From positions 1 through 25,623 of IMG/VR virus record IMGVR_UViG_3300020042_002353: 25,623 bases of DNA. The stretch is one strand, 5' to 3'. A program made the position numbers and the translations under genes. Positions 7,710 to 25,621 of the stretch are shown piece after piece. The notes below the pieces were generated by a model. The model was not told the origin of the DNA and did no database searches. It saw only the letters and a list, made by a program, of their open reading frames with translations. How positions within the stretch are numbered: the first letter of the stretch is position 1; every line of letters starts with the position of its first letter. Source of the DNA: a virus (lineage: Duplodnaviria > Caudoviricetes).

Positions 7710-8144
7710 ATGAATATTAATATACTTCCACCAGAACAAGTTTTAACATACTGGCCTACTATTTGCCCATTCTTAGAGGAAGCATTAAGCTATGGACAAA
7801 ATGAATCATCTCTAGTAGACTATATAAAAAAAATTATTAATGAAACAGCGCAATGCTGGGTAGTTACTGATGAAAATAAATTTATTATTGGTGCTGGATT
7901 AACACAATTAATTCATTATGCACAATATAAAACACTTCATATTGTAGCTTTTTCAGGTAGTAATTTTGAAGAACAATCTAAAGTGTTTCCTACTGTGGAA
8001 AACTTTGCACGACAAATGGGATGTAAAGCTATTGAACAATGGGGAAGACCAGGATGGGCAAAACAATTACCCAAATATGTTCCTGGCTTTAAACAAGCAT
8101 ACGTAGTTATGAAAAAAGATTTAGAAGGAACATATAATGAGTAA
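7710..8144 (+). CDS. GNAT-like protein preceding the ejection genes (T7 gp13-like position)
   Basis: QCWVV...IIGAGLTQ...LHIVAFSG...VENFARQMGCKAIEQWGRPGWAK follows a GNAT-like beta/alpha pattern; context supports it. Confidence 0.5.
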   Translation: MNINILPPEQVLTYWPTICPFLEEALSYGQNESSLVDYIKKIINETAQCWVVTDENKFIIGAGLTQLIHYAQYKTLHIVAFSGSNFEEQSKVFPTVENFARQMGCKAIEQWGRPGWAKQLPKYVPGFKQAYVVMKKDLEGTYNE

Positions 8145-8823
8145 ATGGAAATTAGGAAAGATTGTAAAACGTTATGGCGGTGGTGGTGGAGGTGGTACAA
8201 CAACTACTGTCACACAAAATATTCCAGAAGAATTTAGACCAGCATTACGTAGAGCACAAGAGAGAGCAGAAGAAGCATATCTTGGGGGTAAACTTGATAA
8301 CGTAGCAGGTGTATCTAATTTACAAGAAAAAGCTTTTGGTATGGGTGATACCATACAACAAGTTGGACAATCAGGTTTAACTACATTACAACAACAAAAT
8401 GCTAGACTAACTGATATGGCTAATACAGGTGGAGCTAACGAGCTTCAAGCTGCTTTAGATTTAGATGTAGGTATGGGTGCTGCTAAGATAGGTCAAGACT
8501 ATGGTGCATCAGGTACATTAGGTTCTTACAGACAAAATTTAGCATCTGCCTCTGCTGAAGACGCTACTAAAGCTAAGTTTGCTCAACAAGTTATAAGTAA
8601 TAAAGGCGCTGCTGAAGCTGCAATTGGTGCTAATGTTGGCGCTCAAGGGTCAGTAACTTCAGGTACTGCATCTAAGCTATCTGACTTAGGCGGTCAACAA
8701 AGAAACATTCAACAACAAATTGAAGATAAAGATTATCAAGCATTACAACGATACGCTTCCACTGTGTATGGTAATCCTGCACGACAATCAGCAACAACAT
8801 CACAAAGTGGAGGTGGTAAATAA
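8137..8823 (+). CDS. Putative ejection/pilot protein (P22 gp7-like architecture)
   Basis: Basic leader MSKWKLGKIVKRY followed by G7 and TTTTVTQ; Ala/Gly/Gln-rich helical body; ends in QSGGGK. Confidence 0.55.
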   Translation: MSKWKLGKIVKRYGGGGGGGTTTTVTQNIPEEFRPALRRAQERAEEAYLGGKLDNVAGVSNLQEKAFGMGDTIQQVGQSGLTTLQQQNARLTDMANTGGANELQAALDLDVGMGAAKIGQDYGASGTLGSYRQNLASASAEDATKAKFAQQVISNKGAAEAAIGANVGAQGSVTSGTASKLSDLGGQQRNIQQQIEDKDYQALQRYASTVYGNPARQSATTSQSGGGK

Positions 8824-9347
8824 TGGCATATGATCCTTGGGATTGGGCTAATAGTAGCTCAGAAAAAAAGGAAACAGTTATAGGTGCTCCTTTATCTAAT
8901 GTTATTGTTCCTTTACAAGCTAGTAATGAACAAATGCAGCCAGGACAGGTTATACAAGAACAACCTAATAGGGATGTAGAGCAGTTAAGAAGTATGGCTA
9001 TTAACAAAGGTGTTGATAAAGGGGCTAGTTACGTTTCAGATAAATATGCAGCTATGAAAGCTGGTCCTATTGGTACTGGTGGCGCTCCTGTAGTAGAACA
9101 AAGCATTATGGCTTCTTCACCAACAATTGCTGCACCAGCAGGAACTATGGCGGGAATGGGTACAGGTACTGCTGCTGCCGCCGCTACTGAAGCTGCTGTA
9201 ACTGCTCCTCTTGCTACTACTGCTTTAACTCCTGTTGCTGCTGGAGCCGCAGGCGGAGCTGCTGAAGCAAGTATGCTTGCTGGTATGGGACCAGTAGGTT
9301 GGGGTGTAGGCGCATTATTGTTAGCTAAATCAATGAATTGGATTTAA
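8823..9347 (+). CDS. Putative ejection protein with Ala/Gly-rich hydrophobic C-terminus
   Basis: AAGAAGGAAEASMLAGMGPVGWGVGALLLA tail; translationally coupled (TAATG). Confidence 0.5.
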   Translation: MAYDPWDWANSSSEKKETVIGAPLSNVIVPLQASNEQMQPGQVIQEQPNRDVEQLRSMAINKGVDKGASYVSDKYAAMKAGPIGTGGAPVVEQSIMASSPTIAAPAGTMAGMGTGTAAAAATEAAVTAPLATTALTPVAAGAAGGAAEASMLAGMGPVGWGVGALLLAKSMNWI

Positions 9348-9349
9348 AA

Positions 9350-12300
9350 ATGGGACCACTATCTGCTAAACAACACAGAGAGTACTTAAAGTTTTCTGCA
9401 CAAGAAGCTAGAGCATCAGACAAAATGGAACGGGAAGAAGCTCGTAAACAACAACTACATGAAATTAAACTTGTAGAAGCTGCTGGTAAAGCTGGACAAA
9501 CTTTAGGTCATAAAGAAGACATTCACAAATATAAGATGGGTACTTTAGGTGCTCCATTAAAAATTAAAACACCTAACCCACTAGCTGGAGCAGAAATATT
9601 TAAACGTGGTCAACACATGTTACCATACCAAGTAGAAGATGCTGCTAAAGCTAGAAAAGCTGCTAAAGAAAATACAGATACCGTACCCGCTATGTTAACC
9701 CCTGGTGAAGCTGTTATTCCTCAACCTGCTGCACAAAATCCTAAGAATAAACCTATTATTAAACGTATGGTTCAAGAAGGTAGAAAAGCTAACAGACGAG
9801 GATATGCTGATGGTACCCTTGATGTTAACATAGATACTGATGGTATTGAAAATGTTGCAAGAGAACTTGCTCAACAATACCTACGTGATGGTTCTGTTAA
9901 CATTGTTAACTCAGATGTTATTCCTAGTAGAGTACAACAAGCTGCTGGATACATGGATGGTAGCTCTAAAGTTTCTGTAAATGCTTCTGGTAGTAAACAA
10001 AAAAGTAAAGATAGAGATTCATCTAATGAAAGTTCTAATTACTTTGGTAGAATTGGTTATAATAGTTCTCCTCTTTCAGTAGGCATAAGTGGAGGGGGTT
10101 ACAAATATTCAGGTAGTAATTCTGAAAATTCTTTTAAAGGTGGTAAGTCGGGTATAACTGGTTTAGATGCTACTTATAATGTTGATAAAAATACATCTTA
10201 TGCTATTGAATTAAAAAGAGCATTAGATCAAAATGATGCTCAAAAAGAACAAGCTAATAAGCAAGTTGAATTTAAATACAGAAAAGAATTTAATGATGGT
10301 ACTTCTGCAGTGCCTCAACTAATGAACTATAACGAAGGTACTATTCAAGTACCAGTACCATCATTAGCATATGAGCATTCAGATGTTCCTGGATCTTCTT
10401 TTAAAGATGGTACAGAAGAAGTACCTAACTTTAGTAGAGGTAGTTCAGCTAGTTATCATTATCAAGGTGGTACTGAAGACGTACCTAAGTTATCAAATGA
10501 AGAATATAGACAACAATTCTTAGAGCAAGAAGAATTAAGTAGACGATTAGCTAACGAAAATAAATCACCTGAAGCTATTTCTGCAGCAATTCCTAAAAAT
10601 GTTGTAGTAGAAAGTACTAAACTATCTGATAGCATAGAATCTGCAGTTCCTCGTTCTGCTTATCCAACAGATGTAACTGAAAGCATGAAGCTTAAAGATG
10701 TACAAGCAAAGATTAATGGTAGTGTTAGTTCAGAATTTGACATTCCAGAAAGACCTTTTAAAAATTTAGGTATGCCTGAAGATTTACCAATGTTTGTTAA
10801 ACCCCAAGTAGTTGTTCCAGTTAATAATAATTTTCCTGCACTTCATTCTACTGGAGAACAAACTACTGATAGTACATATTTTGTTAATAAGCGTATTCCT
10901 AAACCTCAATTAAAAGGTGAAGGACCTTCTACATATTTTCCTGAAGACATTTCTGTAGTTCCTGAAGTTAAAGAACCAGCTCAAGCTAGTGATGCAGAAA
11001 TGGAAGCAATATTAGTTGCTAATGAAAAAGTTGTTCCTCCATTAAAACCAGAAGATGATGAAACAAGACCTGAGTACTGGATTAAACATTTAAGAGGTTC
11101 TCAAAAAGATGTTGACAAAGCTATGGCTAATAAAGATGATGAGTCTGCTATTAAGTCTTTAAGCGATTTGTTTACATACAAAGGTATTAAAAGTATTTTA
11201 GGTTTAAATGATCAAGAGGTTGCTCGATTAGCAGTAGCTACTGTAGCAGGTCGTGCTATGGGTTATGACACTGCTCGTGCATTATCTTATGGTGGTAGAC
11301 AAGCATTTGAAACATCTTTACGTAGACAGGCTCAAGAGGAAGCTAATAAACGTCAAGATAAACAATTAGCTGCTCAAGCTGAACGTGAAGATATGCGTAC
11401 TGCTATTACATTAGCTGGTCAGGCTAAAACTGAAAAGAGAGCTGCTGCTAAAGAAAAATTAGATGAAAAGAAATTAGAATTACAAAATAGAATACAAAAT
11501 GCTAAAGAGGAAAGAGATCGTCAATATCGTATATTCCAAGATTTAAAAGAAGATAATAAATGGACTCATCAACAATCTAAAGATGCTAGAGCAGAGCAAC
11601 AACATCTTCAAGATAAATTACAAACTTATTTAGCCATGGATGTTAATCCTGCAGTAAGATCAAAAGCTTTAGATTTAATAGCTAAGTCTAAAACTCCTGA
11701 AGATTGGTTAAGTAATATGCGTAATGCTACTACATATCTAGCAGCTAACGTTCAACATTATCCTCCTGGATATGGTCGTAAAGGTGGTAGTGGTAGTGGT
11801 GATGACGATGGTGAAGGTGGTGGTAAAACTAAGTATGCTAAAGAACCAAAGATGATGTTTGTAAATGGTCAACTCATGCCAGTTCAATATCATAAAGGTA
11901 ATTACCAAACTATGGATGGTAGACCAATTCCACCTAATGCTGTTAAAACTATTGAAGCCCATCGATATGAAGAAGATACTGTTGCTAATAAAGTTGAAGC
12001 ATTAGTGCCTCAAGGTGCTAAAGATAAAGATGGAAAACCTTTTAATGTTAAAGGACTAGCTAATAATTCTAATAGAATATTATCAGGTATTCCTGGAGGA
12101 TTAACTATTGATAACAAAGCTGATGTTATGAATTTAGTTATTCCTCAACTTGTAGAAAGCGGTGTTCAAGATCCTAGTACTGTTAGGCAAGTTATTCGTG
12201 GTAACCTTGCTAAAACTACAAGTCAATCTGATAAAGATTTGTGGAAGCCTAAAGGTAAAAGTTTATCTGCAAAATCTATGACTGAATTTACTGGTGCTTT

Positions 12301-12526
12301 AGATACAGTTATTAATAATGCTGCTTCAAAAAGTCAAGTAATAGATGACCAAACTGCGTATGAAGCTTTGAAAAGAAACTATAATGCTATACCAGCAGAT
12401 GTTAGAACTAAGATGGAAAAATCTAATCTTACACAAGAGGGTTATAGTACGTTCCAAGATTGGGCTATAGCAACAACAACAGGAAATCCTAAATGGAAAT
12501 CTTACACTGAACCTAAACCAAAATAA
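9350..12526 (+). CDS. Large internal virion/ejection protein with repeated [YF]xxG[TS] motifs
   Basis: ATG 9350 preferred over TTG 9338. Contains TDTVPAMLTPGEAVIP, several aromatic-x-x-G-T/S motifs, an acidic Pro-rich linker and a long coiled coil. Confidence 0.6.
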   Translation: MGPLSAKQHREYLKFSAQEARASDKMEREEARKQQLHEIKLVEAAGKAGQTLGHKEDIHKYKMGTLGAPLKIKTPNPLAGAEIFKRGQHMLPYQVEDAAKARKAAKENTDTVPAMLTPGEAVIPQPAAQNPKNKPIIKRMVQEGRKANRRGYADGTLDVNIDTDGIENVARELAQQYLRDGSVNIVNSDVIPSRVQQAAGYMDGSSKVSVNASGSKQKSKDRDSSNESSNYFGRIGYNSSPLSVGISGGGYKYSGSNSENSFKGGKSGITGLDATYNVDKNTSYAIELKRALDQNDAQKEQANKQVEFKYRKEFNDGTSAVPQLMNYNEGTIQVPVPSLAYEHSDVPGSSFKDGTEEVPNFSRGSSASYHYQGGTEDVPKLSNEEYRQQFLEQEELSRRLANENKSPEAISAAIPKNVVVESTKLSDSIESAVPRSAYPTDVTESMKLKDVQAKINGSVSSEFDIPERPFKNLGMPEDLPMFVKPQVVVPVNNNFPALHSTGEQTTDSTYFVNKRIPKPQLKGEGPSTYFPEDISVVPEVKEPAQASDAEMEAILVANEKVVPPLKPEDDETRPEYWIKHLRGSQKDVDKAMANKDDESAIKSLSDLFTYKGIKSILGLNDQEVARLAVATVAGRAMGYDTARALSYGGRQAFETSLRRQAQEEANKRQDKQLAAQAEREDMRTAITLAGQAKTEKRAAAKEKLDEKKLELQNRIQNAKEERDRQYRIFQDLKEDNKWTHQQSKDARAEQQHLQDKLQTYLAMDVNPAVRSKALDLIAKSKTPEDWLSNMRNATTYLAANVQHYPPGYGRKGGSGSGDDDGEGGGKTKYAKEPKMMFVNGQLMPVQYHKGNYQTMDGRPIPPNAVKTIEAHRYEEDTVANKVEALVPQGAKDKDGKPFNVKGLANNSNRILSGIPGGLTIDNKADVMNLVIPQLVESGVQDPSTVRQVIRGNLAKTTSQSDKDLWKPKGKSLSAKSMTEFTGALDTVINNAASKSQVIDDQTAYEALKRNYNAIPADVRTKMEKSNLTQEGYSTFQDWAIATTTGNPKWKSYTEPKPK

Positions 12527-12543: not shown

Positions 12544-15500
12544 ATGAAATCGTTAGATGATTATGTTAATGATGTACTTGCTGATAATGCAGCTATAGCC
12601 CCTCCTTCAGGCTCTGCTTTAACTATTAATAACAAACCAACAAAGAATTCTCCAAAATGGATTGACTCTGATACTGTTAAAGTAAACAATAAAGATTATC
12701 GTATTGAAGGTTATAATGCACCTGAAGTTGCGCATAGATATGATGGTATATTCCTTCCTCCACAAGAGCAAGGGGTATCACCTCAAATACCTAAGATACT
12801 TAATCAAGCAGGGTTTACTGACTTACAAACTACAGGTAAAACAAGTTATGATCGTGGAGTAGCTAAGCTTGTTAATCCTAACACTGGTGAAAATGCAGCT
12901 AATTTTTTATCAAGAACAGGTATAATAGAACCTAATAGATTTACTGATAAAGATTCTGCTGATCAATATTATAACACACAAGCTATTATAAGAGCTTTTC
13001 CTGAAAGAGCTAAACGAGATCCTATATTAGCAGAAGTAGTTAAAGAAAATGAACGTAGAGACAAAGAGTTTGCTGAAGCTGGAAGACGCCAGTATGTCCC
13101 TAAGATAAATGCTTTTAACGAAGAACAATATGCTGCATATAAAAACAGTACAGGTATTAAAGGTATTAATAATGCCAGAGATACTATTAAAAAGATTGAT
13201 GCTATATTAGCTAGTGAAGGTAGACCTGAATTAACACCTGACTTTAATGCAGTAGGTTTTGAGGGTGCTATGTCTTATACAACAGGTGGTGGACAACAAA
13301 TACCTCCTGAAATTAAGGCTAAGTTACTTAAACAAAGAGAAGCAGCACAACAACAGATGTTTACTTCTTCTTATTTACCTGATGTAGTAGGTGGTGTACA
13401 GTTTCGTAGTAATGATAGAACTATAATGAACCAAGCCAATGATCAAATGAGTACTAGTTTTTATAGTGCTCTTAAAGATATGTCTAAGGGTTTTTGGGGT
13501 AACGTAGAAATGGTTGGTGAGAAGACTGGTTGGGATGAACTTAAAGACAATGCTAAAGCACATGTCAATAGTATTAAGATGACTCAAGCAAATTTACCAG
13601 CAACATTATCTTCATTTAGAGATATTAATACTGATGCAGGATGGTGGAATACAGCTAAAGATTCATTAACTTATACAGGTAATTTATTTGCAGGTACATT
13701 ACCTCAAATGACTACTTTAATAGCTTCTGCTTATCTTACTGGTGGTTCTTCTTTAGGTATAGCTTTATCTACAGTACCTGGTTCTTTCTTTTATGCAGGT
13801 CAATTTTATGCTGATCAACCTGATGATAAAAAGAATGCTGCATTAGCTGTTACTGCTGGTGTAGGTTCAGGTGTATTAGATAGGTTAGGTCTTGAATTTT
13901 TATCTGGTAAGTTAGGTTCTGGATTGTTTACTGTTACAGGTAAAGAAGAAGTTATTAATGCTATGATTCAAAACGGTAAAGCAGCAACTAGATTAGAAGC
14001 TGAAAACCTTCTTCAAAATGCTACTAAACAAGAGATATTAGCATTAACAGGTTTTGGAAAAGAATTTGCTACAAAACAATTATTATCTATAGAAGGCGCT
14101 GCTAAAGCAAGTGGTAAAGCATCTATAGCTGGTTTTGGTGAAGGTGGTACTGAGTTATTACAACAAGAACTGCAAATGCTAGGTCAATCAGGTCAATTTA
14201 ATCGTAATTATAAATATGATTTAAGTTATAAAGATCAATTAGAAGATGCCTTTGTTGGTGGTTCTATTATGGGTTTTGGTTTTCATGGAGCAAGAGGCGT
14301 AACTGATATGGCTGGATGGCATTCAGCAGTAGACGCTCAAAGACTTTATGATAAAACTGTTAGTGATTCTCAAGCTTTTCAAGCGGATAACCAAGAAAGA
14401 TTAGCAAATAATAATGGGGGATATGTTGACGTTACTCAATTAGCTAGACAAACTGCTGTTCAACCATCAAATTATGCTGATACTTCTTTAACTAATTTAC
14501 CTACAAATAAGGGATGGTTTGAAGGTGTTAAACAAACAATAGCTAATCCATTATCTTTGTGGAAACAATTAAGTCATACTGCTATACCAAGTATTACCGA
14601 TGATAATGGTAATTTTAAATACAACTTAGCTTATCTTAAATCTATAATGGGTGGTTTTGGTATATTACCAGGAGACTCTGCTTCTGTATTTCAACAAAAG
14701 TTAATGGGTAAATGGTCTGATGGTGGAGCATATGATTTAGCTTCTAGATTAGCTGGAACAATGGGTTTTGGTGTTAACAAACAATCTGTTAACCAAATGG
14801 TTAAAGAAGCATATGATAACTATTGGTCTCAAGGTCTTCAATTACCTGTAAGTACTTATCAAGAACAAGTATTACAAGATTGGAAAAACAATTTGGATAA
14901 AACTAGATTGTCTATGATGCAATCTGCTATTGATGCTGGATTACCATTTAGCCATTTAGCAGATGAAAATGCTTTGTTTCAATCATCTCGTATTGATATC
15001 CCTAAGCTTAATAGTAATAAACCTCTTATTGTAAATGAAATGGTTAATAGTGGAGCAACAAGATCTGAAGCTACTACTGCTGTTAATAATCTTAACAGCC
15101 CTAATAAAGCAAAAGCAAGTGCTGCCGTAGATTATTTATCTCAATATGGTTTCTTTACTAACCCTAATTTACAAAATATATTTCAAAGTAATATTCTTGA
15201 TAGTATTGAGCATATGAAAGAAAGAACTGCACAACAAGTTATGCACGCAACTTATCTTGGAAAAGATGGTAATATCCTTGGTAAGCTTTTATTAGCAGCT
15301 AAAGATGCAGGTGAGTTTAATGATTCTAATGGTGTGTTTGATGAGAAAGCTTTTAAAGCTGCAACAACAGAAGTAAAAGCATGGTATGATATTACTAATA
15401 ATGACTACAACAATATTGAAAGTCCTTTCTTAGCTTCTACCCAAAACTATTTAGTTACTGCAACATTGTTAGCTTCATTATCTAAAGCAGCTATTTCTTC

Positions 15501-16845
15501 TCAAGCTGAAGCTACATTAGCAACATTAGGTACACCTGCTAAACTATTAGGAAAACAATTATCTACATACGCCAGTGAGTATGCTACTGAATATGCTACT
15601 GATATGGCTAAGGGAGCCTCATTTGCAGCATCATTGTTTGGTATTAAACATTTGAGAGAAGTTCCTGATGTAAATTTACAATCAAGATTAGATAAATTAA
15701 ATGACAAATTAAATGCACCTAATGCTTCTCAAGAGTCTCTTGATGAAACACAAAAAGAAATTGATGAGTTACATGAGCGTTATTTTAATAGAAAAACATT
15801 TAGCAGATTAGGTTTTGCTGAAGTTGGTTTTGATGCATCTAATAAATATGATTTTGGTGGTACAGACACTAACAAACTACGTAAGATTATGGGTGTGTTT
15901 GTCTCTGCTATTTCTTTAAGAGCACAGACAGATGCTAACCGCATGGCAGTACTTAGTATTGCTGGTGATATTATGATGACTCAGCTTAATACTCTTAGCA
16001 ATGTTGATCCTGCTATTCGTGATGTTGCATTTGCTACTGGTCAAGGTTTAACTGTAGAACAACAACAAGCTTTAATTCAATTACAACAATATGGTTTAAA
16101 TGTACCTCATATGCTTAATGCAATAGATGTTATGGGAAGCCAATTTAATATGTCTCCTTTTGAAGGTAACTTTTTAAATACAGAACAAAACGCCCCTATG
16201 TACGAAGCTATACAAGATAATATTTACACTGCATTAATTAACTTTGTTGATTCTCGTGTTGTTAATCCACAACCATTTAACACACCAAAGATTTATAATG
16301 ATCCACGGTTTAAAATGATTACTACTATGCAAAAGTTTATGGGTACAGCTACAGCAGTTCTATTACCTAGATTATATAAGCAACACATACTTAATGGTAG
16401 TGTTGGTATGCGTTATGATGCTTTTGCTACTATGGGTATGACCTTAATTATGAGTGCTTTTGTTAATATATTTAAAGATCAAATCTCTTATGGAGAAGAT
16501 AGTCCTTATGTAAAAAGTAGAGCAAAGAAAGCTCAACGCATTTTAAATTCATCAGGCTTACTTGGTCAAGCAGAAAAGATAACAGAAGCTATATCACCTA
16601 CTATTGAATTTAGTAGTGCTAAATTTACAGAAAATCCTGCGGGATGGGCTGTAGATAAAGCTAAAGGTATATCACCTGTTGTATCATGGGTAGCTAAACC
16701 CATTGAAGGGGCATATGATATATCAGAAGGTAAAGATCTAAAGGGCGCTAAAAAGATAATGAGGGCTATGCCTGTTATCGGTAGCTTTCCTGCAGCAAGT
16801 AATTATACAGCAGAAGAATTTGTAAATGCTTTTAAGGGAAAATAA
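12544..16845 (+). CDS. Large internal virion/ejection protein with N-terminal SNase (thermonuclease)-like domain
   Basis: 1433 aa. WIDSDTVKV...YRIEGYNAPE...SYDRGVAKL resembles SNase motifs; central Gly/Ala-rich hydrophobic segments; helical C-terminus; RBS AAGGGG. Confidence 0.6.
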   Translation: MKSLDDYVNDVLADNAAIAPPSGSALTINNKPTKNSPKWIDSDTVKVNNKDYRIEGYNAPEVAHRYDGIFLPPQEQGVSPQIPKILNQAGFTDLQTTGKTSYDRGVAKLVNPNTGENAANFLSRTGIIEPNRFTDKDSADQYYNTQAIIRAFPERAKRDPILAEVVKENERRDKEFAEAGRRQYVPKINAFNEEQYAAYKNSTGIKGINNARDTIKKIDAILASEGRPELTPDFNAVGFEGAMSYTTGGGQQIPPEIKAKLLKQREAAQQQMFTSSYLPDVVGGVQFRSNDRTIMNQANDQMSTSFYSALKDMSKGFWGNVEMVGEKTGWDELKDNAKAHVNSIKMTQANLPATLSSFRDINTDAGWWNTAKDSLTYTGNLFAGTLPQMTTLIASAYLTGGSSLGIALSTVPGSFFYAGQFYADQPDDKKNAALAVTAGVGSGVLDRLGLEFLSGKLGSGLFTVTGKEEVINAMIQNGKAATRLEAENLLQNATKQEILALTGFGKEFATKQLLSIEGAAKASGKASIAGFGEGGTELLQQELQMLGQSGQFNRNYKYDLSYKDQLEDAFVGGSIMGFGFHGARGVTDMAGWHSAVDAQRLYDKTVSDSQAFQADNQERLANNNGGYVDVTQLARQTAVQPSNYADTSLTNLPTNKGWFEGVKQTIANPLSLWKQLSHTAIPSITDDNGNFKYNLAYLKSIMGGFGILPGDSASVFQQKLMGKWSDGGAYDLASRLAGTMGFGVNKQSVNQMVKEAYDNYWSQGLQLPVSTYQEQVLQDWKNNLDKTRLSMMQSAIDAGLPFSHLADENALFQSSRIDIPKLNSNKPLIVNEMVNSGATRSEATTAVNNLNSPNKAKASAAVDYLSQYGFFTNPNLQNIFQSNILDSIEHMKERTAQQVMHATYLGKDGNILGKLLLAAKDAGEFNDSNGVFDEKAFKAATTEVKAWYDITNNDYNNIESPFLASTQNYLVTATLLASLSKAAISSQAEATLATLGTPAKLLGKQLSTYASEYATEYATDMAKGASFAASLFGIKHLREVPDVNLQSRLDKLNDKLNAPNASQESLDETQKEIDELHERYFNRKTFSRLGFAEVGFDASNKYDFGGTDTNKLRKIMGVFVSAISLRAQTDANRMAVLSIAGDIMMTQLNTLSNVDPAIRDVAFATGQGLTVEQQQALIQLQQYGLNVPHMLNAIDVMGSQFNMSPFEGNFLNTEQNAPMYEAIQDNIYTALINFVDSRVVNPQPFNTPKIYNDPRFKMITTMQKFMGTATAVLLPRLYKQHILNGSVGMRYDAFATMGMTLIMSAFVNIFKDQISYGEDSPYVKSRAKKAQRILNSSGLLGQAEKITEAISPTIEFSSAKFTENPAGWAVDKAKGISPVVSWVAKPIEGAYDISEGKDLKGAKKIMRAMPVIGSFPAASNYTAEEFVNAFKGK

Positions 16846-19800
16846 ATGGCAATTAATGTAAATGTAAATACGCAAGGCAGAGCACCATTAAGTGCAGAGC
16901 AATTGCAAGCATTCTCTAACCAAGCTTTTGGTACTGGTGCTGCTCCTCAGGTAGAAATACCTGGGACAGAAGCAGTTAAACAAGCTATGGATGTATATAA
17001 TCCTCAACCTATTCCCGTAGTACCTCTACCAGTTGGAAGTATTGCTGGACCAGTAAATGTAAACAGGTTATCTGCTCAATCTACTCCTGAAGATTTAGCT
17101 CAGGCTACTCAATCATCTTTTGCTGGTCGAGAAAGATTAGGCTTAGTAGAAGATGAACAAGGTATGCCTCAGTTTGATCCTCAGACTGGTGAGTATATAA
17201 CTCAACCTATTACTATGGTTGATTATGGTCAACAACAAGAAGCTGACTTATCTACTAGACCTAATATGGCTCCTGCTTTAATGACTGAAGATCCAGTAGA
17301 AGCAGGTCAAGCTATTCTTAGAGCAAGAGCAGAAGTATCTTCAGCAGAGTCTATGCCAGCTGGTACATCTCAATTCATGGGTATGGATGATAGTACTATT
17401 AAACAATGGGCTGATAGTGCAGCACCTGCATTAAGCATGGTGTCAGATGCTACTGCTGCTGATTTGTTTAGTCCTGAAGCTGTTATTAGAAGTACTGCTG
17501 AAGGGTACTATGGTGTTCCTGCTGGTCTAGAGATTATGAATACTAACAATATTCCTTTAGAATATGCTAGACCAATATCTACAGTGTTAGGTATTGCACA
17601 TGCACGAGCTACTGAGCAAACACGATTGTTTAGAAATGGTATTAAAACAGATCCATTTGAAGATGTTGCTGAAGTAAGAGATAAGAACGGTAATCTTATG
17701 GATGCCCAACCAAAAACTAATTTAGTTAATTCTACTATTGCTTCAATGCACAATGCTCTATCTAACTTAGGTATGGATATACCTGCCCAAGCAGTAAGAC
17801 AATTAGCAGAAGCTAAAGTTGAAGCAGAAATTGCTCAACATCGTCACCTGCCTATGTTAGATAAAGATGATAACATTGTGTATGGTTCTTCTAAAGAAAT
17901 GAAAGATTTAGCAGCTGAATTAAGCTATATGTCTGCTGCATTAGCTGGTGATGAACGTAGACCTTTGCCTTCTAAAGTACCACAGATATCTGGATCTAAT
18001 TTTATTAAGCCTGGTTCACAAGGTACAAAGAATTCTTTAACTATAGAAGGTGCTAAACAACCTGTAGCAGAAACAGTTAAAGATATATTTGGTTCTATTG
18101 GTGAAATCTTTTTACCTAAAGCTATGTTGTCTACAAGTATGCAGATAGAAGATATTAAAAGAAATATGGTAGATGGTCCAGAAGGATTTTATTCTTCAAG
18201 CCCATTTGCTAAACGTCATAAAGTATCTTTATCAGACTACAATAAACTTAAACAAAGAGTTAAACCACCTAGTGATTATGATAATAATAATCCAGTATCT
18301 AGAGCTAAGTTTGTTGAGCTACAAAATCAACATGCAAAAACTACTATAGGTAATGCTATTCAGTTTATGGAATATGATTTAGCTAATGCTCAAAAGATTA
18401 AAGGTGTTGTGTATACTGGTTACTCTCATTCAATGGCTAACCAACGATTCTTTAGAACTAATGCTGGAACTGATATACTAGCGTCTAAAAATGCTACTCG
18501 TGAGATGCTTAACTTTGGTATCCAAGGTTTAACTTACGCTAATCATTTCTTTGATCCTGTAAAAATTAAAAACTTACAAGACAAAGCAATGGGTATATTT
18601 AGCAAGTCAGGTAAAGCTCGTAACAAAGCGTTAATGGCATTAGCTCCTGATGAAAGAACTGCTCTTGGTCTTATGGAGTGTGCAGTAGTTAATTACTATA
18701 GCTATAGTGGTGATCCATCTGTACACAACAAAGATATTGTTAAACAACCTGAAATACAATTAATTAGAATGTATACACCTGAGATTGGTAAACATTTAGG
18801 TATGTTAGGTAAAGAATATAATGATTGGTTATCAGGTAATGTAGCTGAAGGTTCAAACATTATTAATATACTTGCTAATATGCCTAGAGGTGAAGCTCAA
18901 TCACATCAAAATCTTTATGATGACTTTGCTCAATTAGGTATGGCAGCAATGGATCCAGCAATGGCTAATCGTTTTGTTAAACTTAGTGCTTTAAATTATG
19001 ATGATGGAAATCAGAATGGTATCTTTATTCAATCTTTGTATGCAGGTAAACCAACAGTTGCAATTAGATTAGGTTCTTATAACCCTAACTTATCTGATAT
19101 GCGTGGATATGCGTTAAGTATTATTGGTGATAACTTATCTAATATAATTGTTGATAACAAAGATAAGCTTGATGGCTGGAAAAATTTCTTTAGTAATGCA
19201 GTCAATGAGAAGTTAGCAACTGATTTGTTTAAAGCACCTTTAATGCAGAACTCTTATGGTAAAGATTCTGGAATGTTCTTTGATCATGTATTATCTTTCT
19301 TAGAAGGTTCTCAAGATTATAATAGCGTATTTGCTGAATATGTATTACCTAACTATAATAGTTCAACAGAAGCAGCTCAAGATTTAGCTAACGCATTAGA
19401 TGCAACTTTAAGAAAAGTAATTGACCCAAGCTTTACTCGTATGCTTAAAAAGGTTGGTCGTATGTTTGCTGTTATTAACTCAATACCTATTTTAAAAGGT
19501 ATTACTGGTGATGACACTGTGTATTCTTCTGTTGATTTAGGTTTTATTCCTGATCAATTCAGAGATGTAGAAGGCACGGGTATGACTCCTGAAGGACAAC
19601 CATATACTACTGTAGATAGAGGTATTGAAACAAATACTTACCTAGCTCCTGAAGGTATTGTTGAAGTACAAGCTGCAAGAAGGATGTACAATGCTGCTGC
19701 TGGTAAACCTAATCAATCATTCTATAACAAAGCTAAAAATAAATTTGATTTGTTTGAAAATGCTCTTGGCTCTGCATTGTCTAGATTGTTAGGTGTTATG

Positions 19801-20460
19801 CCTATTCAATCTACTGATGCTGACTTGCTTAAGCTAATGATGTTAGATTTAAATGCGGATAGAAAAATACCTTTACCAGTAGCTACTGTTCATGATTCAT
19901 TAATAACAACAATGGATACAATGCATCTCTATCGTAATACTTATAATAACGTAGCAATTCCTCAGGCAATACCTGAGATTAAAAAGTTTGCTAAACAATT
20001 ACAAGATGCTTATATCAAAGCTAAAGATGAGGTGTTTAAAAGAACAGCTGGTGCATCAGACGTAGGTATTGGTACTAAAGGAGACTTTCCTGCATTAGGC
20101 GCTTTCTTTGAAGACTTAAATAAAAAGACTAATAATAGTCCAGAGTATGAAGCATATATTAAAAACAGATCAAAAGACCCAATCAAAAGTTGGGAAGAGC
20201 TTAAAGCAAAGAACAATCAATTATTAGATAAAGCTAAGAAAGCAGGTTGGATTGATGGTATACCTAATCTAACAGTATCTGGTTCACAATTCAGAGACTT
20301 ATTTAATATGATTGAATCTTACCAACAATTAGGCGGTGCAGAAAATATGTTTAAGATTTTTGCAAATGAATTTGAAGGAAAAGTAGATCAAGGTTTTAAA
20401 GCATTACGTACAAATGGTAATGTAATAAAACATGGTATTGCTCAGATGACTCACGCATAG
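16846..20460 (+). CDS. Divergent single-subunit (T7/N4-type) RNA polymerase, putative virion-packaged RNAP
   Basis: Motif A YDDGNQNG (D720), motif B KAPLMQNSYG (K796-x7-Y804G805), MPIQSTDA, motif C VATVHDSL (D1017), all in the correct order; last gene of the ejection operon. Confidence 0.8.
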   Translation: MAINVNVNTQGRAPLSAEQLQAFSNQAFGTGAAPQVEIPGTEAVKQAMDVYNPQPIPVVPLPVGSIAGPVNVNRLSAQSTPEDLAQATQSSFAGRERLGLVEDEQGMPQFDPQTGEYITQPITMVDYGQQQEADLSTRPNMAPALMTEDPVEAGQAILRARAEVSSAESMPAGTSQFMGMDDSTIKQWADSAAPALSMVSDATAADLFSPEAVIRSTAEGYYGVPAGLEIMNTNNIPLEYARPISTVLGIAHARATEQTRLFRNGIKTDPFEDVAEVRDKNGNLMDAQPKTNLVNSTIASMHNALSNLGMDIPAQAVRQLAEAKVEAEIAQHRHLPMLDKDDNIVYGSSKEMKDLAAELSYMSAALAGDERRPLPSKVPQISGSNFIKPGSQGTKNSLTIEGAKQPVAETVKDIFGSIGEIFLPKAMLSTSMQIEDIKRNMVDGPEGFYSSSPFAKRHKVSLSDYNKLKQRVKPPSDYDNNNPVSRAKFVELQNQHAKTTIGNAIQFMEYDLANAQKIKGVVYTGYSHSMANQRFFRTNAGTDILASKNATREMLNFGIQGLTYANHFFDPVKIKNLQDKAMGIFSKSGKARNKALMALAPDERTALGLMECAVVNYYSYSGDPSVHNKDIVKQPEIQLIRMYTPEIGKHLGMLGKEYNDWLSGNVAEGSNIINILANMPRGEAQSHQNLYDDFAQLGMAAMDPAMANRFVKLSALNYDDGNQNGIFIQSLYAGKPTVAIRLGSYNPNLSDMRGYALSIIGDNLSNIIVDNKDKLDGWKNFFSNAVNEKLATDLFKAPLMQNSYGKDSGMFFDHVLSFLEGSQDYNSVFAEYVLPNYNSSTEAAQDLANALDATLRKVIDPSFTRMLKKVGRMFAVINSIPILKGITGDDTVYSSVDLGFIPDQFRDVEGTGMTPEGQPYTTVDRGIETNTYLAPEGIVEVQAARRMYNAAAGKPNQSFYNKAKNKFDLFENALGSALSRLLGVMPIQSTDADLLKLMMLDLNADRKIPLPVATVHDSLITTMDTMHLYRNTYNNVAIPQAIPEIKKFAKQLQDAYIKAKDEVFKRTAGASDVGIGTKGDFPALGAFFEDLNKKTNNSPEYEAYIKNRSKDPIKSWEELKAKNNQLLDKAKKAGWIDGIPNLTVSGSQFRDLFNMIESYQQLGGAENMFKIFANEFEGKVDQGFKALRTNGNVIKHGIAQMTHA

Positions 20461-20461
20461 C

Positions 20462-20509
20462 AAAATAAAAAGCCCCTCAAGGATAATTCCTTGAAGGGCT
20501 ATTTTTTTT
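20462..20509. terminator. Bidirectional intrinsic terminator
   Basis: Hairpin 20471-20500 AGCCC-C-TCAAGGA-TAAT-TCCTTGA-A-GGGCT, flanked by an A-tract on the left and T8 on the right, between convergent genes. Confidence 0.9.
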
Positions 20510-20762
20510 AAATCAGTCTTTTAATTTCTTGACGAACACTATCTGCATTTGTATCAGCCAAAGATAAAGCTTCATCTGGAGAGTAACCTTTTGTAAGGTA
20601 TCCTTCATAATTATCTTTGTGCATCTTTCGGATAGCAGCTTCATTAATATCTGGAGTGCCAGCTAGTTTAGGGTCTAACCCTAGATTTGTACATACATCC
20701 ATGTCAGATGTTTCTCTATCACCTCTTAAAGCAAAGATGTTATAGTTTTGATATTGTTTCAT
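20508..20762 (-). CDS. Hypothetical protein, 84 aa
   Basis: ATGA overlap with the Dps-like gene; stop abuts the terminator. Confidence 0.75.
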   Translation of the reverse strand: MKQYQNYNIFALRGDRETSDMDVCTNLGLDPKLAGTPDINEAAIRKMHKDNYEGYLTKGYSPDEALSLADTNADSVRQEIKRLI

Positions 20763-21223
20763 TTAAAACTCTTTCCAATAGTTGCTTTTACTTTCCAATG
20801 TAATTTACCTAAGTCTCTAAGGTAGTCACCAATATAAGTATTCAAACCACCATAACATGTTTTATCAGCTACTTCAAATAATGATTGAGCATTTTGAATT
20901 AGTATTTCAAAGTCATTACATAATTCAGTAAACATAGTCTTACTAGACTCACCTAGTTTGTTACACTCAAGAATCTCTGTTGTATCTAAAATAGCTTTAA
21001 GAGAAGGTAATGCTGGCTTATCTAACTGACGTAATTGTTCACCTAAGCTATCATGTTGCGCCCAAAGGAAATCATAAATCTCATTTAATAATTCATGGTC
21101 TTGCGCAAAGGTTGGACCTTCAACATTGAAGTGGTATCCATGTGACTTATAGTATACAACAAAATTATCTGCAAAAAGGTTACGAAGAGGTAGTACTACA
21201 ATAGAACTATTACCCTTGTGCAT
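20759..21223 (-). CDS. dps: Dps/ferritin-like protein
   Basis: KSHGYHFNVEGPTFAQDHELLNEIY...HDSLGEQLRQL...KLHWKV matches the Dps signature; start reassigned to ATG 21223 with GGAGG RBS. Confidence 0.8.
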   Translation of the reverse strand: MHKGNSSIVVLPLRNLFADNFVVYYKSHGYHFNVEGPTFAQDHELLNEIYDFLWAQHDSLGEQLRQLDKPALPSLKAILDTTEILECNKLGESSKTMFTELCNDFEILIQNAQSLFEVADKTCYGGLNTYIGDYLRDLGKLHWKVKATIGKSFK

Positions 21224-21455
21224 TAGCTTCCTCCCAATCATATGTATGTGTATAATCATCTACAAAGTCTAGATGGCATCCTGATGGGGGAAAGTAACCC
21301 ATGCCTCGTAGGAATCTTTCAAACTGTTCTATCACCTCAGTAATGTGAGAATGAGCAGACATTTCCATACGAGTAATTAGCTTAGGATTACTGTGATTGC
21401 ATTCAAAGATAATGCTATCTTCACACATATCTTGAATATCGTATTCGTTAATCAT
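21210..21455 (-). CDS. Hypothetical protein, 81 aa
   Basis: RBS AGGGGA; overlaps both neighbours; contains EVIEQFERFLRGMGY. Confidence 0.75.
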   Translation of the reverse strand: MINEYDIQDMCEDSIIFECNHSNPKLITRMEMSAHSHITEVIEQFERFLRGMGYFPPSGCHLDFVDDYTHTYDWEEANAQG

Positions 21456-21789
21456 TTAATTCCCCTAATAATTCTGAAAGTGGTTTTGACTTTCGTGTAC
21501 TGTTTTTTAAATCTAATTGTTTTCTTGCTTCAATATAAGCATCAACATTAGTATCCATGAATTCTTGTAATGCTACTAATTCACTAATAATTAAAGATAA
21601 CTTTTTAGCTTTCTCAACATAATCTTTTTCTTTATAAATACTAAAGTCTAATGTAACATTCCTATTACAATCAGAGATAGTAACATTAGTATCCATAGAC
21701 CAATCACAGATATCACAACTAACTTCAATAGCTGCTAATCCATGTTTACTGTTAAGGAATTTTCTTGAGTTATATTTTTTAGATTTCAT
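21448..21789 (-). CDS. Hypothetical protein, 113 aa
   Basis: Start reassigned to ATG 21789 (AGGA RBS), because the longer start at 21825 lies inside tRNA-Arg. Confidence 0.75.
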   Translation of the reverse strand: MKSKKYNSRKFLNSKHGLAAIEVSCDICDWSMDTNVTISDCNRNVTLDFSIYKEKDYVEKAKKLSLIISELVALQEFMDTNVDAYIEARKQLDLKNSTRKSKPLSELLGELND

Positions 21790-21799
21790 ATGTGTCCTA

Positions 21800-21874
21800 T
21801 GGTGGGTCATGCATGAATCGAACATGCACTCGTGACTTAGAAGATCACTGTTCTGTCCATTGAACTAATGACCC
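21800..21874 (-). tRNA. tRNA-Arg(UCU)
   Basis: GGGTCAT acceptor stem, anticodon arm GTGAT-CTTCTAA-GTCAC, T arm GCATG-TTCGATT-CATGC, encoded CCA. Confidence 0.92.
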
Positions 21875-21882
21875 TTGTTGTT

Positions 21883-21957
21883 TGGTTGCGGAAAGTGGAT
21901 TCGCACCACCGACCTCTGGATTATGAGTCCAGCGCTCTCCTACTGAGCTATTCCGCT
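21883..21957 (-). tRNA. tRNA-Met(CAU), possibly initiator-type
   Basis: Anticodon arm CTGGA-CTCATAA-TCCAG, A1:A72 mismatch, T loop TGCGAAT, encoded CCA. Confidence 0.88.
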
Positions 21958-21964
21958 ATATTAG

Positions 21965-22038
21965 ATGCGACAATTGGATTCGAACCAATGACCTAGCGAT
22001 TATCAACCCGCTTGCTCTTCCACCTGAGCTATGTCGCA
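21965..22038 (-). tRNA. Atypical tRNA-Ile(GAU) with one extra base in the anticodon arm and no encoded CCA
   Basis: TGCGACA/TGTCGCA acceptor, GCTC/GAGC D stem, 18-nt anticodon arm AGCGG-GTTGATAA-TCGCT, T arm ATTGG-TTCGAAT-CCAAT; followed by CTA. Confidence 0.75.
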
Positions 22039-22041
22039 TTG

Positions 22042-22060
22042 TTCCTATTAGGGGACAGCT
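22042..22060 (-). promoter_or_regulatory. Putative phage-RNAP promoter, copy 2 (AGCTGTCCCCTAATAGGAA)
   Basis: Overlaps the thioredoxin stop codon and lies immediately upstream of the tRNA cluster. Confidence 0.7.
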
Positions 22061-22317
22061 GTTCCTGTAATAAAAGTATCTAGTTCAGGTAGAGTAATAG
22101 ACCCGCTAATCTTTCGAATCATATTATCTTTTTCATCAGCTAAAACAAATGTAGGTACAGTCTTAACACCATATCTATCTCTAAGCTCTGGGTTATCCAT
22201 AGCGTTAACATTAGTTAGCACTACACCATAATCATAATGAAAGTCTATATCTTTAATACGACTATTCATTTGTCTGCATGGTACACATGTATCTGTATAA
22301 AATTTATATAAGTTCAA
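22048..22317 (-). CDS. Thioredoxin
   Basis: KFYTDTCVPCRQM (CxxC) and YGVKTVPTFVL (cis-Pro motif); ATGA-coupled to nrdJ. Confidence 0.9.
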   Translation of the reverse strand: MNLYKFYTDTCVPCRQMNSRIKDIDFHYDYGVVLTNVNAMDNPELRDRYGVKTVPTFVLADEKDNMIRKISGSITLPELDTFITGTAVP

Positions 22318-24191
22318 ATCTCACATCCTCCAGCTGCACATGCTAATGTTTGAGCACCCTCAACATTATCACGGTCTTCAATAAAGTTTTCCCAATCAAT
22401 AGATGGGAGCGTATCTTTTAAGCGATGATAAACTGACAAGTCAATATCCTCATATGGAGCCTGACGATAAGTACCACCATCATCAGGTAAGAAACTAATA
22501 CCAGTACACTCATCAAAGTGTTCATATACCCATGCACCTACATCCATCCATTCATGTTCTTTAACAGAGATAGTGACAGATGGTTTGTGTTCGCACCAAT
22601 AACGCTGATACATTAACCAGATATTTAAGTGATCAATAGCGGTTAAGTCTTTGCGGGTAAACCCTGGTGAACGTTGTGGGAAACTGAACACAGATGTTTG
22701 ATCAGGTTTCATTACGCAATCTTCATGAGGTACACCTTGCTCAATTAAGAACTGAGTTAAAGGATCCTTCTTATCCTGACGAATACGTCTAATGTAATAT
22801 GGAGCATGTCCTGCATGAATACCACTACTTGTTTGTGTTAATTGAGATACAGTGCCTTCAGGCTTAACACAAGTAATAGCTGCTGATTCAGAAATGCCTA
22901 AGATTTCAGCCCATTCTTGGTTAGTATCACGAGCTACGTCACGTAGGGTAGATAACACTTCTTCTAGATTCATATTACCTTGACCACGTAATAGTTGATT
23001 ATCTAAAATACCAGTCATAGACACACCTAACAAACGTTCTGACTCAGTATTAGTACGCCAGATATCACGTAGGTAAGGGAAGTAAGTTAGAGTTGACTGC
23101 ATGGTACCCATGATAGTAGCAATTCTTACTTTGTGTTTGAGTGATTCCAAAGTATCTTCGGGAGATACAACAACGGTAGATAGATTACAGAATTGGTAGG
23201 GCTTAAGGATAATTTCTGAACAAGGGTTTGTTCCATAGTCTGTGGTACTATCACGACGACCCCATTTAGCTGCTTGTTTTTGTGATGCTTCACGATTAAA
23301 GATTCCTCGTTCACCTGAGTGACTGTTATAAATGTCTAACCATTCCTTCATAAACTCGCCTACAGAAGGTTTCCTGTTGTATACTGCTGAGTTGTTAGCT
23401 AAAGCACGTTCACCATGTTGTTCCCACCATGTACCTGTCTTAGCAGTAGCATGGTCATAGTCTCCTAAGTCACCTAAGCTAATCATAGCACTACGGCGAA
23501 CACCACCTACGACAACTACCTCACCAATCTTACACATAATATCATGGCATTCAATAGGCTTAAGCTGACGTCCTTGAGACGCCATAAACTTATTAACTGT
23601 ATAACTAAACAAATCAATCAATGGACCAGGACCAGAGGCACGACCACCAAAGGTCTTTAATGGAGCACCTGCTGGACGTACTAATGATATATCCCATTGA
23701 GGAATAATACCTTTGTATAACATATCAACAAGGATACGATAAGCATCACACCAACCTTCTTTACTGTCTTGTACTTTAATAGTAAAATCAGCAGCATTTA
23801 CAAGGGTAGGTACTAAGGGTAACTGACCCGTATATTGTTGTTCAGACGAGAAGCCTACTCCAGTACCACATAATAGGATGTACATGGCTTCATCAAAACA
23901 ACGAGGATTATCGATAGGTAAATAAGAACAATTATATGCGGCTACGTTAGTTCGGCGAAGAGCTTCACCAGCTGTCATAATAGAACGCATTGAAGGTAGT
24001 GTAGACAAACTATTAATTTCATTACGTAAGATTTCCCAGATACTGTCATCTGGTTTTATTTTATTCTTTAATTCTCTCTGAAAGAAGGTTACCCAACGAT
24101 CAGAAGTTTCATTCCAATTTTCCCTACGTTTCTTTTCAGGTAAGTAACGAGCATAACGGGATTTAGCGATAAGTTGTTGATAAGAGTTCAT
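22314..24191 (-). CDS. nrdJ: Class II adenosylcobalamin-dependent ribonucleotide reductase (monomeric RTPR type)
   Basis: YNCSY, GVRRSAMISL, GTNPCSEI, FCNL, TCVKPEGTVSQL and C-terminal ACAAGGCEI; no small-subunit gene adjacent. Confidence 0.93.
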   Translation of the reverse strand: MNSYQQLIAKSRYARYLPEKKRRENWNETSDRWVTFFQRELKNKIKPDDSIWEILRNEINSLSTLPSMRSIMTAGEALRRTNVAAYNCSYLPIDNPRCFDEAMYILLCGTGVGFSSEQQYTGQLPLVPTLVNAADFTIKVQDSKEGWCDAYRILVDMLYKGIIPQWDISLVRPAGAPLKTFGGRASGPGPLIDLFSYTVNKFMASQGRQLKPIECHDIMCKIGEVVVVGGVRRSAMISLGDLGDYDHATAKTGTWWEQHGERALANNSAVYNRKPSVGEFMKEWLDIYNSHSGERGIFNREASQKQAAKWGRRDSTTDYGTNPCSEIILKPYQFCNLSTVVVSPEDTLESLKHKVRIATIMGTMQSTLTYFPYLRDIWRTNTESERLLGVSMTGILDNQLLRGQGNMNLEEVLSTLRDVARDTNQEWAEILGISESAAITCVKPEGTVSQLTQTSSGIHAGHAPYYIRRIRQDKKDPLTQFLIEQGVPHEDCVMKPDQTSVFSFPQRSPGFTRKDLTAIDHLNIWLMYQRYWCEHKPSVTISVKEHEWMDVGAWVYEHFDECTGISFLPDDGGTYRQAPYEDIDLSVYHRLKDTLPSIDWENFIEDRDNVEGAQTLACAAGGCEI

Positions 24192-24212: not shown

Positions 24213-24231
24213 TCGGTATTAGGGGACAACT
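24213..24231 (-). promoter_or_regulatory. Putative phage-RNAP promoter, copy 3 (AGTTGTCCCCTAATACCGA)
   Basis: In the short gap between the RNAP stop and the nrdJ RBS (AAGGA). Confidence 0.65.
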
Positions 24232-25621
24232 AGCAGAAAAAGTATTTAGATTCATAGACTTGTTTTAAATCTAATGTACCTTCTTCTGGAGATGGAAACG
24301 TAAAAGTATCTTTATTAAGCATCAATGTATCCATAAGATTATTAAAGAAGTCTGGCATATCATATTGAGCTACAAAGGTCATCTTAGTTACTTCTTGTAA
24401 GAAATCCACTTCACTGGCATGAGTACTAAAGCTGTCATGCACAGCACCAAAGTTACCATTAAAGATAGAAATAACGTTAGCCATATGAGCAGCATCGTAA
24501 CTATGAACGAGGTTAGGACTGATACCAGAAGCAAAAGAACGTCTACAAGGAACCTTTTCACCAGTCTCTTTATTGAGTACATCAACTTTAATAACATGTC
24601 TAATCCTTCCTTTAGGGTTTCCAGCAATACCTCTAATAGTACCTCTATGTTTTCGTTCATGCTGAAGAAATGCTTTATACACTACAGGGAATCCTGAAGG
24701 TGTATGCCATGATAACTGATTACGATTACAGTTAAGCTCATGTTCAGCAATCTTTTGTAAAAACTTAGTTGTTTTTAATGGACCAGAACATACAGCATTA
24801 ATAGCCTTAATAAGGTTACCTGCTAAATCTCCACATTCTTTTTCTGTAATACCATACTTAACAGTAAAGCCTTCTACATGACAGTCATCATACATATTTT
24901 TAGCAATACGTTGTTTACCTGCTGAATATGCACGAGTCATAGAGCCTCGTTTAGCAATACCCTTACGGATATCCTTCATAGGCATATTTTTTTCTTTAAA
25001 GTAGTCAGGCATAATATTAATAAGTTCTTTAGCCACAGCTACATAAAAGTCTTTTTGTATAGGTGTAGGTACTAATGATACTAATGTAGCTGCTTGTGTA
25101 TCTCTAGACATAGCTGCCAGATGCTGCCATCCATTATTACTACCATCAATAGGTATAGGAAAGCCAGACATGTGTTTCTTACCTTTACTTTTTGCTTGAA
25201 TGAAGTCTTTAATTTCAAGACAACAAGCTAATAAGCTATAAGGTTTTTCAGCTGATGTATCTATAGTATAAAACTTAGCAATGCTAGCTATTTTAGTTAG
25301 GTTATTATCTACCCATATAGCTCTGTCTTCAAGAGTCATTTTGTCAAGAGAGATAGTGTCTAACCCTTCTCCTTTTAAATAACTTTTATAGTCAGTAGTA
25401 AAGTAATGTGGTAATTTGTTAATATTAAATGATTCATTGAAACATCCAGCGGTATGTACCTTAAGCCAGAAGTAACCACGATCGTCCATCTCTTTTTTAT
25501 TCTGAAATAAAAAGAGACTACGGGCTAAGTCACTACCCTGAAACTCTAAGAAGGATTCAGCATAGTATACTCGACCACGATAGTCACAGGATACTTCTTG
25601 ATAGAAAGATCTATCACCAAT
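24230..25621 (-). CDS. T7-family single-subunit DNA-directed RNA polymerase, 5'-truncated by the window edge
   Basis: Frame is open to the window end. Manual extension gives ...SCDYRGRVYYAESFLEFQGSDLARSL (DxxGR motif), then PIDGSNNGWQH (A), KRGSMTRAYS (B), SPNLVHSYDA and AVHDSFST (C). Confidence 0.95.
   Translation of the reverse strand: MGDRSFYQEVSCDYRGRVYYAESFLEFQGSDLARSLFLFQNKKEMDDRGYFWLKVHTAGCFNESFNINKLPHYFTTDYKSYLKGEGLDTISLDKMTLEDRAIWVDNNLTKIASIAKFYTIDTSAEKPYSLLACCLEIKDFIQAKSKGKKHMSGFPIPIDGSNNGWQHLAAMSRDTQAATLVSLVPTPIQKDFYVAVAKELINIMPDYFKEKNMPMKDIRKGIAKRGSMTRAYSAGKQRIAKNMYDDCHVEGFTVKYGITEKECGDLAGNLIKAINAVCSGPLKTTKFLQKIAEHELNCNRNQLSWHTPSGFPVVYKAFLQHERKHRGTIRGIAGNPKGRIRHVIKVDVLNKETGEKVPCRRSFASGISPNLVHSYDAAHMANVISIFNGNFGAVHDSFSTHASEVDFLQEVTKMTFVAQYDMPDFFNNLMDTLMLNKDTFTFPSPEEGTLDLKQVYESKYFFC

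Follow-up and report, generated by a model that had tools for sequence, protein, structure and literature searches.

Introduction

Injected single-subunit RNA polymerases (RNAPs) have been described for N4-like phages, as fusion proteins of 3500 residues. In the virion RNAP (vRNAP) of N4, gp50, of about 3500 amino acids (aa), the polymerase (mini-vRNAP, residues 998-2103, PDB 3c3l) lies between large N- and C-terminal domains. Here we analyse a stretch of 25,623 nucleotides (nt) from a virus of the Caudoviricetes (IMG/VR record IMGVR_UViG_3300020042_002353, positions 1 to 25,623; hereafter the window), whose plus strand encodes a protein of 1204 aa at 16846-20460. This protein is a compact single-subunit RNAP, unannotated until now, that most likely works like N4's virion enzyme and stands outside the gp50 family.

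Several described systems serve as references. The set defining T7-like RNAPs comprises motifs A, B and C and the DX2GR region (PMC4496689), a source that also covers the mechanism of the N4 hairpin promoters and the dependence of N4 late genes on the host sigma-70 RNAP. The operon of gp50, gp51 and gp52 is described in PMC13434306. Suppression of cysteine is a conserved feature of Schitoviridae ejection proteins, with passage through the periplasm as the suggested reason (PMC11445570), and the label 'putative vRNAP' of StenR_269 rests on size and absence of cysteine alone (PMC10747016). In Roseobacter phage CRP-7, only ORF30 is named as an RNAP in the available part of PMC6918029. For Lactococcus phage KSY1, section 2.7 of PMC11476376 reports a pair of T7-like RNAP genes and mentions no virion role for them.

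Motifs, homology and predicted fold

All six motifs named in a preliminary description of the window were found where it had placed them, and the set typical of T7-like RNAPs is present, in order and in register. The DxxGR-equivalent region (18421-18510, plus strand) opens with YSHSMANQRFF at residue 526 (nt 18421) and includes R534 and R552. In motif A (18997-19020), YDDGNQNG begins at residue 718, and the catalytic D720 (nt 19003) ends a predicted β-strand. Motif B (19219-19260) reads T792-x3-K796-x7-Y804-G805; its sequence, TDLFKAPLMQNSYG, begins at residue 792, with K796 at nt 19231. MPIQSTDA follows from residue 985, and VATVHDSL, from residue 1012, belongs to motif C (19879-19902), whose catalytic D1017 (nt 19894) occupies the turn of a predicted β-hairpin.

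A word search yielded 30 relatives and a full HMMER scan without length limit 92 matches, the longest of 1464 aa. Residues 201-1204 of the query were aligned with 59 of the 92, all of at least 1093 aa except P0043; shorter relatives were taken as fragments and excluded. Across these 60 sequences, with identities reaching down to 15-20%, R534, R552, D720, D1017 and N1034 never vary, all but one sequence retain Y804 (59 of 60), and position 796 holds Lys in 50 and Arg in 10. Since the catalytic residues are invariant at such low overall identity, the motifs are more than chance. The replacement of the motif-B Arg (T7 R627) by Thr, reported previously, is real in this protein (T792) but local: Lys occupies the position in 38 of 60 members and Thr in two. 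In a CRP-7-like subgroup (L052, 17859-21566; P0096, P0106, P0109, P0115 and P0116) Arg stands at the motif-B Lys position (10/60), and motif A reads DS or DA, not DG.

Homology became significant only when profile was compared with profile; the family profile gave no significant match to N4 or T7 sequences taken singly. Compared with the polymerase domains of 14 Schitoviridae vRNAPs, it aligned over 727 columns (probability 98.4, E 7.4e-15; residues 227-1067 against mini-vRNAP 134-999), and with 13 T7-like RNAPs over 600 columns (E 8.7e-7); for comparison, the N4 profile matches the T7 profile with E 1.9e-14. All controls (two reversed, five block-shuffled, three neighbour-gene) gave non-significant E-values of 0.013 or more. 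In this register R534, D720, T792, K796, Y804 and D1017 correspond to R425, D537, R627, K631, Y639 and D812 of T7 and to R424, D559, R666, K670, Y678 and D951 of N4 mini-vRNAP. PF00940 was weakly matched by three of 30 distant members (best E 1.4e-4), and the feature neighbours in the ESM Atlas take in PF00940 clusters at 0.92, which is a lead only. A tblastn search of 50,697 phage records with the 1204-residue protein or with P0107 returned no direct match.

An AlphaFold model of residues 201-1204 (predicted local distance difference test, pLDDT, 88.1; predicted template modelling score, pTM, 0.85) predicts a right-hand polymerase fold, with both aspartates placed as above. All 39 matches listed in a Foldseek search of the PDB were single-subunit RNAPs (best E 1.9e-13), and most named matches in a viral fold search were RNAPs; mitochondrial, T7 and N4 enzymes were returned. 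It is highly improbable that we are dealing with a family-A DNA polymerase or a primase-like enzyme instead of a transcriptase. In the viral fold search one DNA polymerase does appear (rank 46), and a single Pfam DNA_pol_A match (E 0.032, far below the cut-off) was rejected. The profile and fold matches to RNAPs, however, span 600-730 columns and take in the DxxGR region, which is specific to RNAPs, as well as the N-terminal domain; moreover, genes for a DNA polymerase and a primase are already present in the relatives. The controlled profile-profile alignment and the predicted fold support the 1204-residue open reading frame (ORF) as a divergent single-subunit RNAP, a call that the preliminary description had made from motifs and had proposed to check by just such a structural search.

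Relation to N4, T7 and mitochondrial RNAPs

The special closeness to N4 suggested earlier stands only in part. The profile scores favour N4, and the N4-type profile covers more of the N-terminal domain, yet it is also deeper (effective number of sequences 5.2 vs 4.1). Identity over 558 shared core columns is equal (12.5% to N4-type and 12.4% to T7-type enzymes), and N4 mini-vRNAP ranks 48th among solved structures, below mitochondrial and T7 ones. With only about 12% identity in the core, the branching of a tree would not be reliable; the safe reading is a third deep lineage, leaning towards N4 vRNAP.

Likenesses to gp50 go beyond the profile alignment, which includes the N-terminal part of mini-vRNAP: DGxxNG in motif A, KxPL in motif B, depletion of cysteine, the final position in a likely ejection block that is poor in cysteine, and a further RNAP encoded by the same phage. 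GC-closed hairpins before early genes may be another likeness. Nevertheless, the protein is not a Schitoviridae gp50, since it is without the N- and C-terminal domains and its fold ranking does not favour N4 over T7. As noted before, the gene is close in size to the polymerase domain alone: full-length family members measure 1093-1464 aa. Profiles of the two flanking N4 domains (shallow, from 11 close sequences) matched neither this protein nor its 1433-aa neighbour, so that the neighbour as the missing N- or C-terminal domain is unsupported by what is a weak test. The Pfam vRNAP domains PF21769, PF21894, PF21624 and PF21867, carried by 120 of 120 N4 relatives among the matches listed, were not matched at E ≤ 0.1 by the protein or by 30 relatives. 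There are four cysteine-poor genes upstream here and two in N4. The partner enzyme of N4, RNAPII, is an early heterodimer, whereas here it is mostly one chain of 729-759 aa encoded after the DNA polymerase and primase.

T7 and mitochondrial RNAPs (PF00940) share the predicted fold and catalytic motifs and supply the best-ranked solved structures. Unlike T7-like enzymes, which have 5-15 Cys, the 1204-residue protein is depleted in cysteine, has no direct PF00940 match, is encoded among virion genes and carries an extra N-terminal segment of about 200 aa (16846-17445, plus strand). Pro, Gln and Ala make up 9, 10 and 13.5% of this segment, compared to 4.6, 4.1 and 9.8% of the rest, and it may serve in packaging or as a tether. 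The low-complexity N-terminus reported earlier is confined to these residues; those from 227 onwards align with the N-terminal part of mini-vRNAP.

Gene position and cysteine depletion

Tail fibre, spanin and endolysin genes occupy the plus strand of the window, followed by large unknown genes that end in the polymerase ORF. From the opposite strand, genes for Dps, thioredoxin, a class II ribonucleotide reductase (RNR) and an ordinary T7-like RNAP converge on it. An Rz-like spanin points to a Gram-negative host. The polymerase ORF starts directly after the stop codon of the 1433-aa gene, in agreement with the preliminary description, and this arrangement is general: in 43 of 49 viral loci the polymerase gene comes immediately after the 1433-aa orthologue, and the other six are truncated by a contig end. 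The two genes are separated by -4 to +12 nt in 38 of 39 distinct pairs. Each of ten long relatives has one copy of the polymerase gene.

The family contains 12 Cys in 53,958 residues (0.22 per 1000): 51 of 60 members have none and 57 have at most one, as does the 1204-residue protein with its single Cys. The four genes upstream (228, 174, 1062 and 1433 aa) account for 9 Cys in 88,006 residues, or 0-0.15 per 1000, and N4 gp50, gp51 and gp52 have zero. The frequency per 1000 is 16.3 in the 144-aa gene just before the ejection block, 22.9 in RNR and 15.4 in the ordinary RNAP (363 in 23,633).

The gene's conserved place as the last of the ejection block, the shared cysteine depletion and a candidate early hairpin (below) are circumstantial evidence that points to a virion role. 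Position and composition would fit any ejected protein, and this one might be packaged and ejected mainly as a DNA-pulling or structural part, with host RNAP transcribing the early genes. Its motif B is irregular (T792; K and R swapped in 10 of 60), and a transcription-driven ejection motor has been proposed for DEV gp71 (PMC11445570). But the invariance of both catalytic aspartates and R534 at 15-20% identity argues for retained catalysis, and a motor driven by transcription would add to a role as virion RNAP, not replace it; we regard a mainly mechanical function as unlikely. An active second RNAP, made late for some late genes and never packaged, would suit the gene's location in the late arm and has a possible parallel in the two RNAP genes of KSY1 (PMC11476376, available part). 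We find it quite improbable: the last gene of the late arm appears too late to drive that arm, and loss of cysteine would not be expected in an enzyme that stays in the cytoplasm. In these genomes, 15-26 residues per 1000 are still cysteine in the ordinary RNAP, RNR, Dps and thioredoxin.

Among the plus-strand neighbours, the 1433-aa gene (12544-16845), cysteine-depleted and orthologous to CRP-7 gp34, likely encodes a large ejection protein. The cysteine-depleted 1062-aa gene (9338-12526) and the cysteine-free 174-aa gene (8823-9347) likely encode another and a small one. For the cysteine-depleted 228-aa gene (8137-8823), one of five orthologues scanned weakly matches PHROG 4287 'DNA ejection protein' (E 0.005). 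Two of three orthologues scanned of the 1062-aa gene have a peptidoglycan-hydrolase-like domain; those in L042 (3077-5683) and L024 (3077-5764) carry two different lytic-enzyme-like domains near residues 150-330, while a PHROGs scan matched none in the window's own protein.

The polymerase ORF is followed at 20462-20509 by a hairpin with an A run on one side and a T run on the other. It is likely a bidirectional terminator where the gene arms converge, and like hairpins stand in the same place in G001, G002 and G003. Four of the ten long relatives were fully mapped. Their genes form two arms that converge, the ordinary RNAP being encoded behind the DNA polymerase and primase; their capsid, portal and terminase are 50-59% identical to those of CRP-7.

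The ordinary RNAP is represented in the window by its cysteine-rich C-terminal 463 aa (24230-25621, minus strand; PF00940, E 3e-56). It measures 733 aa in the closest relative, is a single chain of 729-759 aa in most loci, and lies on the other strand within 10 kb in 38 of 49 loci, the remaining 11 having short flanks. A heterodimeric partner of the RNAPII type is thus not the rule. In L016 (17971-19272 plus an ORF upstream), L027 (14550-17000) and L031 the enzyme is split into two ORFs (283+433 aa; 445+322 aa, the latter 144 nt apart), which may reflect an intron, a frameshift or a heterodimer like N4 RNAPII. Between both polymerases, the minus strand of the window (20759-24191) holds the Dps/ferritin-like, thioredoxin and class II RNR genes.

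Candidate promoters

Two kinds of promoter-like signal were found. The first, a box ending in CCTAATAG, occurs twice in the window against 0.03 expected: upstream of a 512-aa virion gene (4864-4879, plus strand), where it may serve a phage RNAP as promoter for the transcription unit that closes with the polymerase gene, and in the replication arm (22045-22060, minus strand). Just downstream of the latter, the minus strand resembles a tRNA start (candidate). Nine of the ten relatives have 6-10 copies and the tenth has one; they occur on both arms and frequently precede the genes for the terminase and the 512-aa virion protein. By position only, we assign the box to the ordinary RNAP as its candidate promoter. 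Since structural genes are among those preceded by such boxes, the second phage RNAP may do the late job that falls to host RNAP in N4. CRP-7 has a CCCTATTAA variant twice, near 2033 (plus) and 38273 (minus).

The second signal is a GC-closed hairpin, xxGC-G(N2-3)TT-GCxx, found in nine of ten relatives when the initial 2 kb of the early strand were searched (12 copies; expected 0.00-0.02 per genome), and standing 170-1000 nt into the early arm. Its outer pairs are complementary in 12 of 13 core matches (GA/TC in seven, GG/CC in three, CA/TG in two) and so covary. Copies before the first early genes lie in G001 at 7943 and 8229 (plus) and, on the minus strand, in G002 at 11114, G003 at 45335, G009 at 28308, G004 at 57952 and G007 at 673. 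In N4 itself, the top strand of the promoters has the sequence GC-TTC-GC or GC-TCC-GC. The chances that the early hairpin is a virion-RNAP promoter seem to us evenly balanced; it could act in RNA instead. A sigma-70 reading was dropped by eye, with no promoter scan run; a ribosome-binding-like word lies 7-19 nt after 11 of 12 copies.

An independent scan of the collection used one hairpin variant, a 15-mer, and gave at least 118 matches. At least 12 of the 118 fall within 3 kb of a terminase of the CRP-7-like group, at least 11 of them divergent from it; at least 22 are near an unrelated, distant terminase, and the rest of the matches listed are near none. In L090, L091, L095, L097 and 18 similar loci, from unrelated phages, the same 15-mer lies about 1.5 kb from a terminase of 22-26% identity, probably one redundant chance match.

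A further early element consists of a bulged hairpin ending in GAGAC, then GGGGTA(A/G/T)GTACC, with a stem change between copies (G001 8585-8640 and 8985-9030; G002 about 10590-10540; G003 44980-44935 and 44600-44560). It is possibly an RNA processing or regulatory site.

CRP-7 and KSY1

An orthologue of the polymerase exists in a cultured phage: gp33 of CRP-7 (MK613349, 'hypothetical protein', 1235 aa; E 4.9e-103), with no other match among the 50,697 phage records. It has the same gene position and no cysteine, and a T7-like RNAP, gp30, lies on the opposite arm; its motif B reads KxxxR-x7-YG, and the hairpin pattern of the closer relatives is absent from this genome. Neither the MK613349 record nor the available part of PMC6918029 recognises gp33 as a polymerase, and a literature search, mostly of open-access journals and parts of their articles, returned no description of the gp33-type family as RNAPs.

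KSY1 gp033 (L227, 15987-18449) offers a parallel. With 820 aa and no cysteine, beside an ordinary enzyme (gp014) with 10 Cys, it is likewise a compact, divergent second RNAP, and possibly another compact virion RNAP. A close tie of the family to gp033 or gp014 is unsupported, the match to gp033 being marginal (E 0.006, 46 columns), and gp033 sits among unannotated genes in a phage of a Gram-positive host. Because gp033 is smaller and cysteine-free, it would be unsafe to call the present protein the smallest virion RNAP.

Discussion

We consider it likely that this stand-alone protein, with its predicted T7/N4-type RNAP fold, is made late, packed with the ejection proteins, injected, and starts early transcription. 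In the proposed pathway its gene, which closes the structural arm, would be transcribed from CCTAATAG promoters as far as the convergent terminator, and the protein would be encapsidated with the 228-, 174-, 1062- and 1433-aa ejection proteins. It would then cross the periplasm, hence, we propose, its lack of cysteine. Once refolded in the cytoplasm, it would initiate at the short GC-closed hairpins before the first early genes. The ordinary 733-aa RNAP, encoded late in the replication arm, would next read the CCTAATAG boxes on both arms. Separate upstream proteins would do the membrane and channel jobs of the gp50 N- and C-terminal domains.

Several observations weigh against this interpretation. 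The protein has no direct match in Pfam, PHROGs or PDB sequences (for the PDB, with the single protein or two profiles as query), and its Foldseek template modelling scores are only about 0.4, with root-mean-square deviations of 11-19 Å. Besides the Thr at the motif-B Arg position and its one Cys, R753 (nt 19102-19104), an Arg in 58 of 60 members, stands where T7 has Y571 and N4 mini-vRNAP Y612; as a speculation, this Arg might offset the missing one in motif B. No membrane-spanning helix that would tie the polymerase to the ejection channel is predicted (maximum hydropathy 1.08), and the ejection role of its neighbours is deduced from weak matches and composition. The early hairpin sits outside the window, has a loop of 5-6 nt against 3 nt in N4, and was matched neither in CRP-7 nor in the first 2 kb of G010; its pattern was derived partly from the genomes in which it was counted.

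More speculatively, and with somewhat more doubt than belief on our part, CRP-7-like podophages may hold a third deep RNAP lineage: a minimal free-standing virion enzyme with its own hairpin promoters of 5-6-nt loop, which leaves the middle and late genes to a T7-like RNAP. Infection could then run without host RNAP, and gp50 of N4 would represent a fusion of an enzyme of this kind with ejection domains.

The cultured member CRP-7, through gp33, makes the claim directly testable. If it is true, the group would provide a new orthogonal polymerase with candidate promoters. A compact virion RNAP, a third of the N4 size, would also bear on the origin of gp50, and a free-standing 1200-residue enzyme in a separate, widespread phage group would mean that the injected-RNAP strategy is modular.

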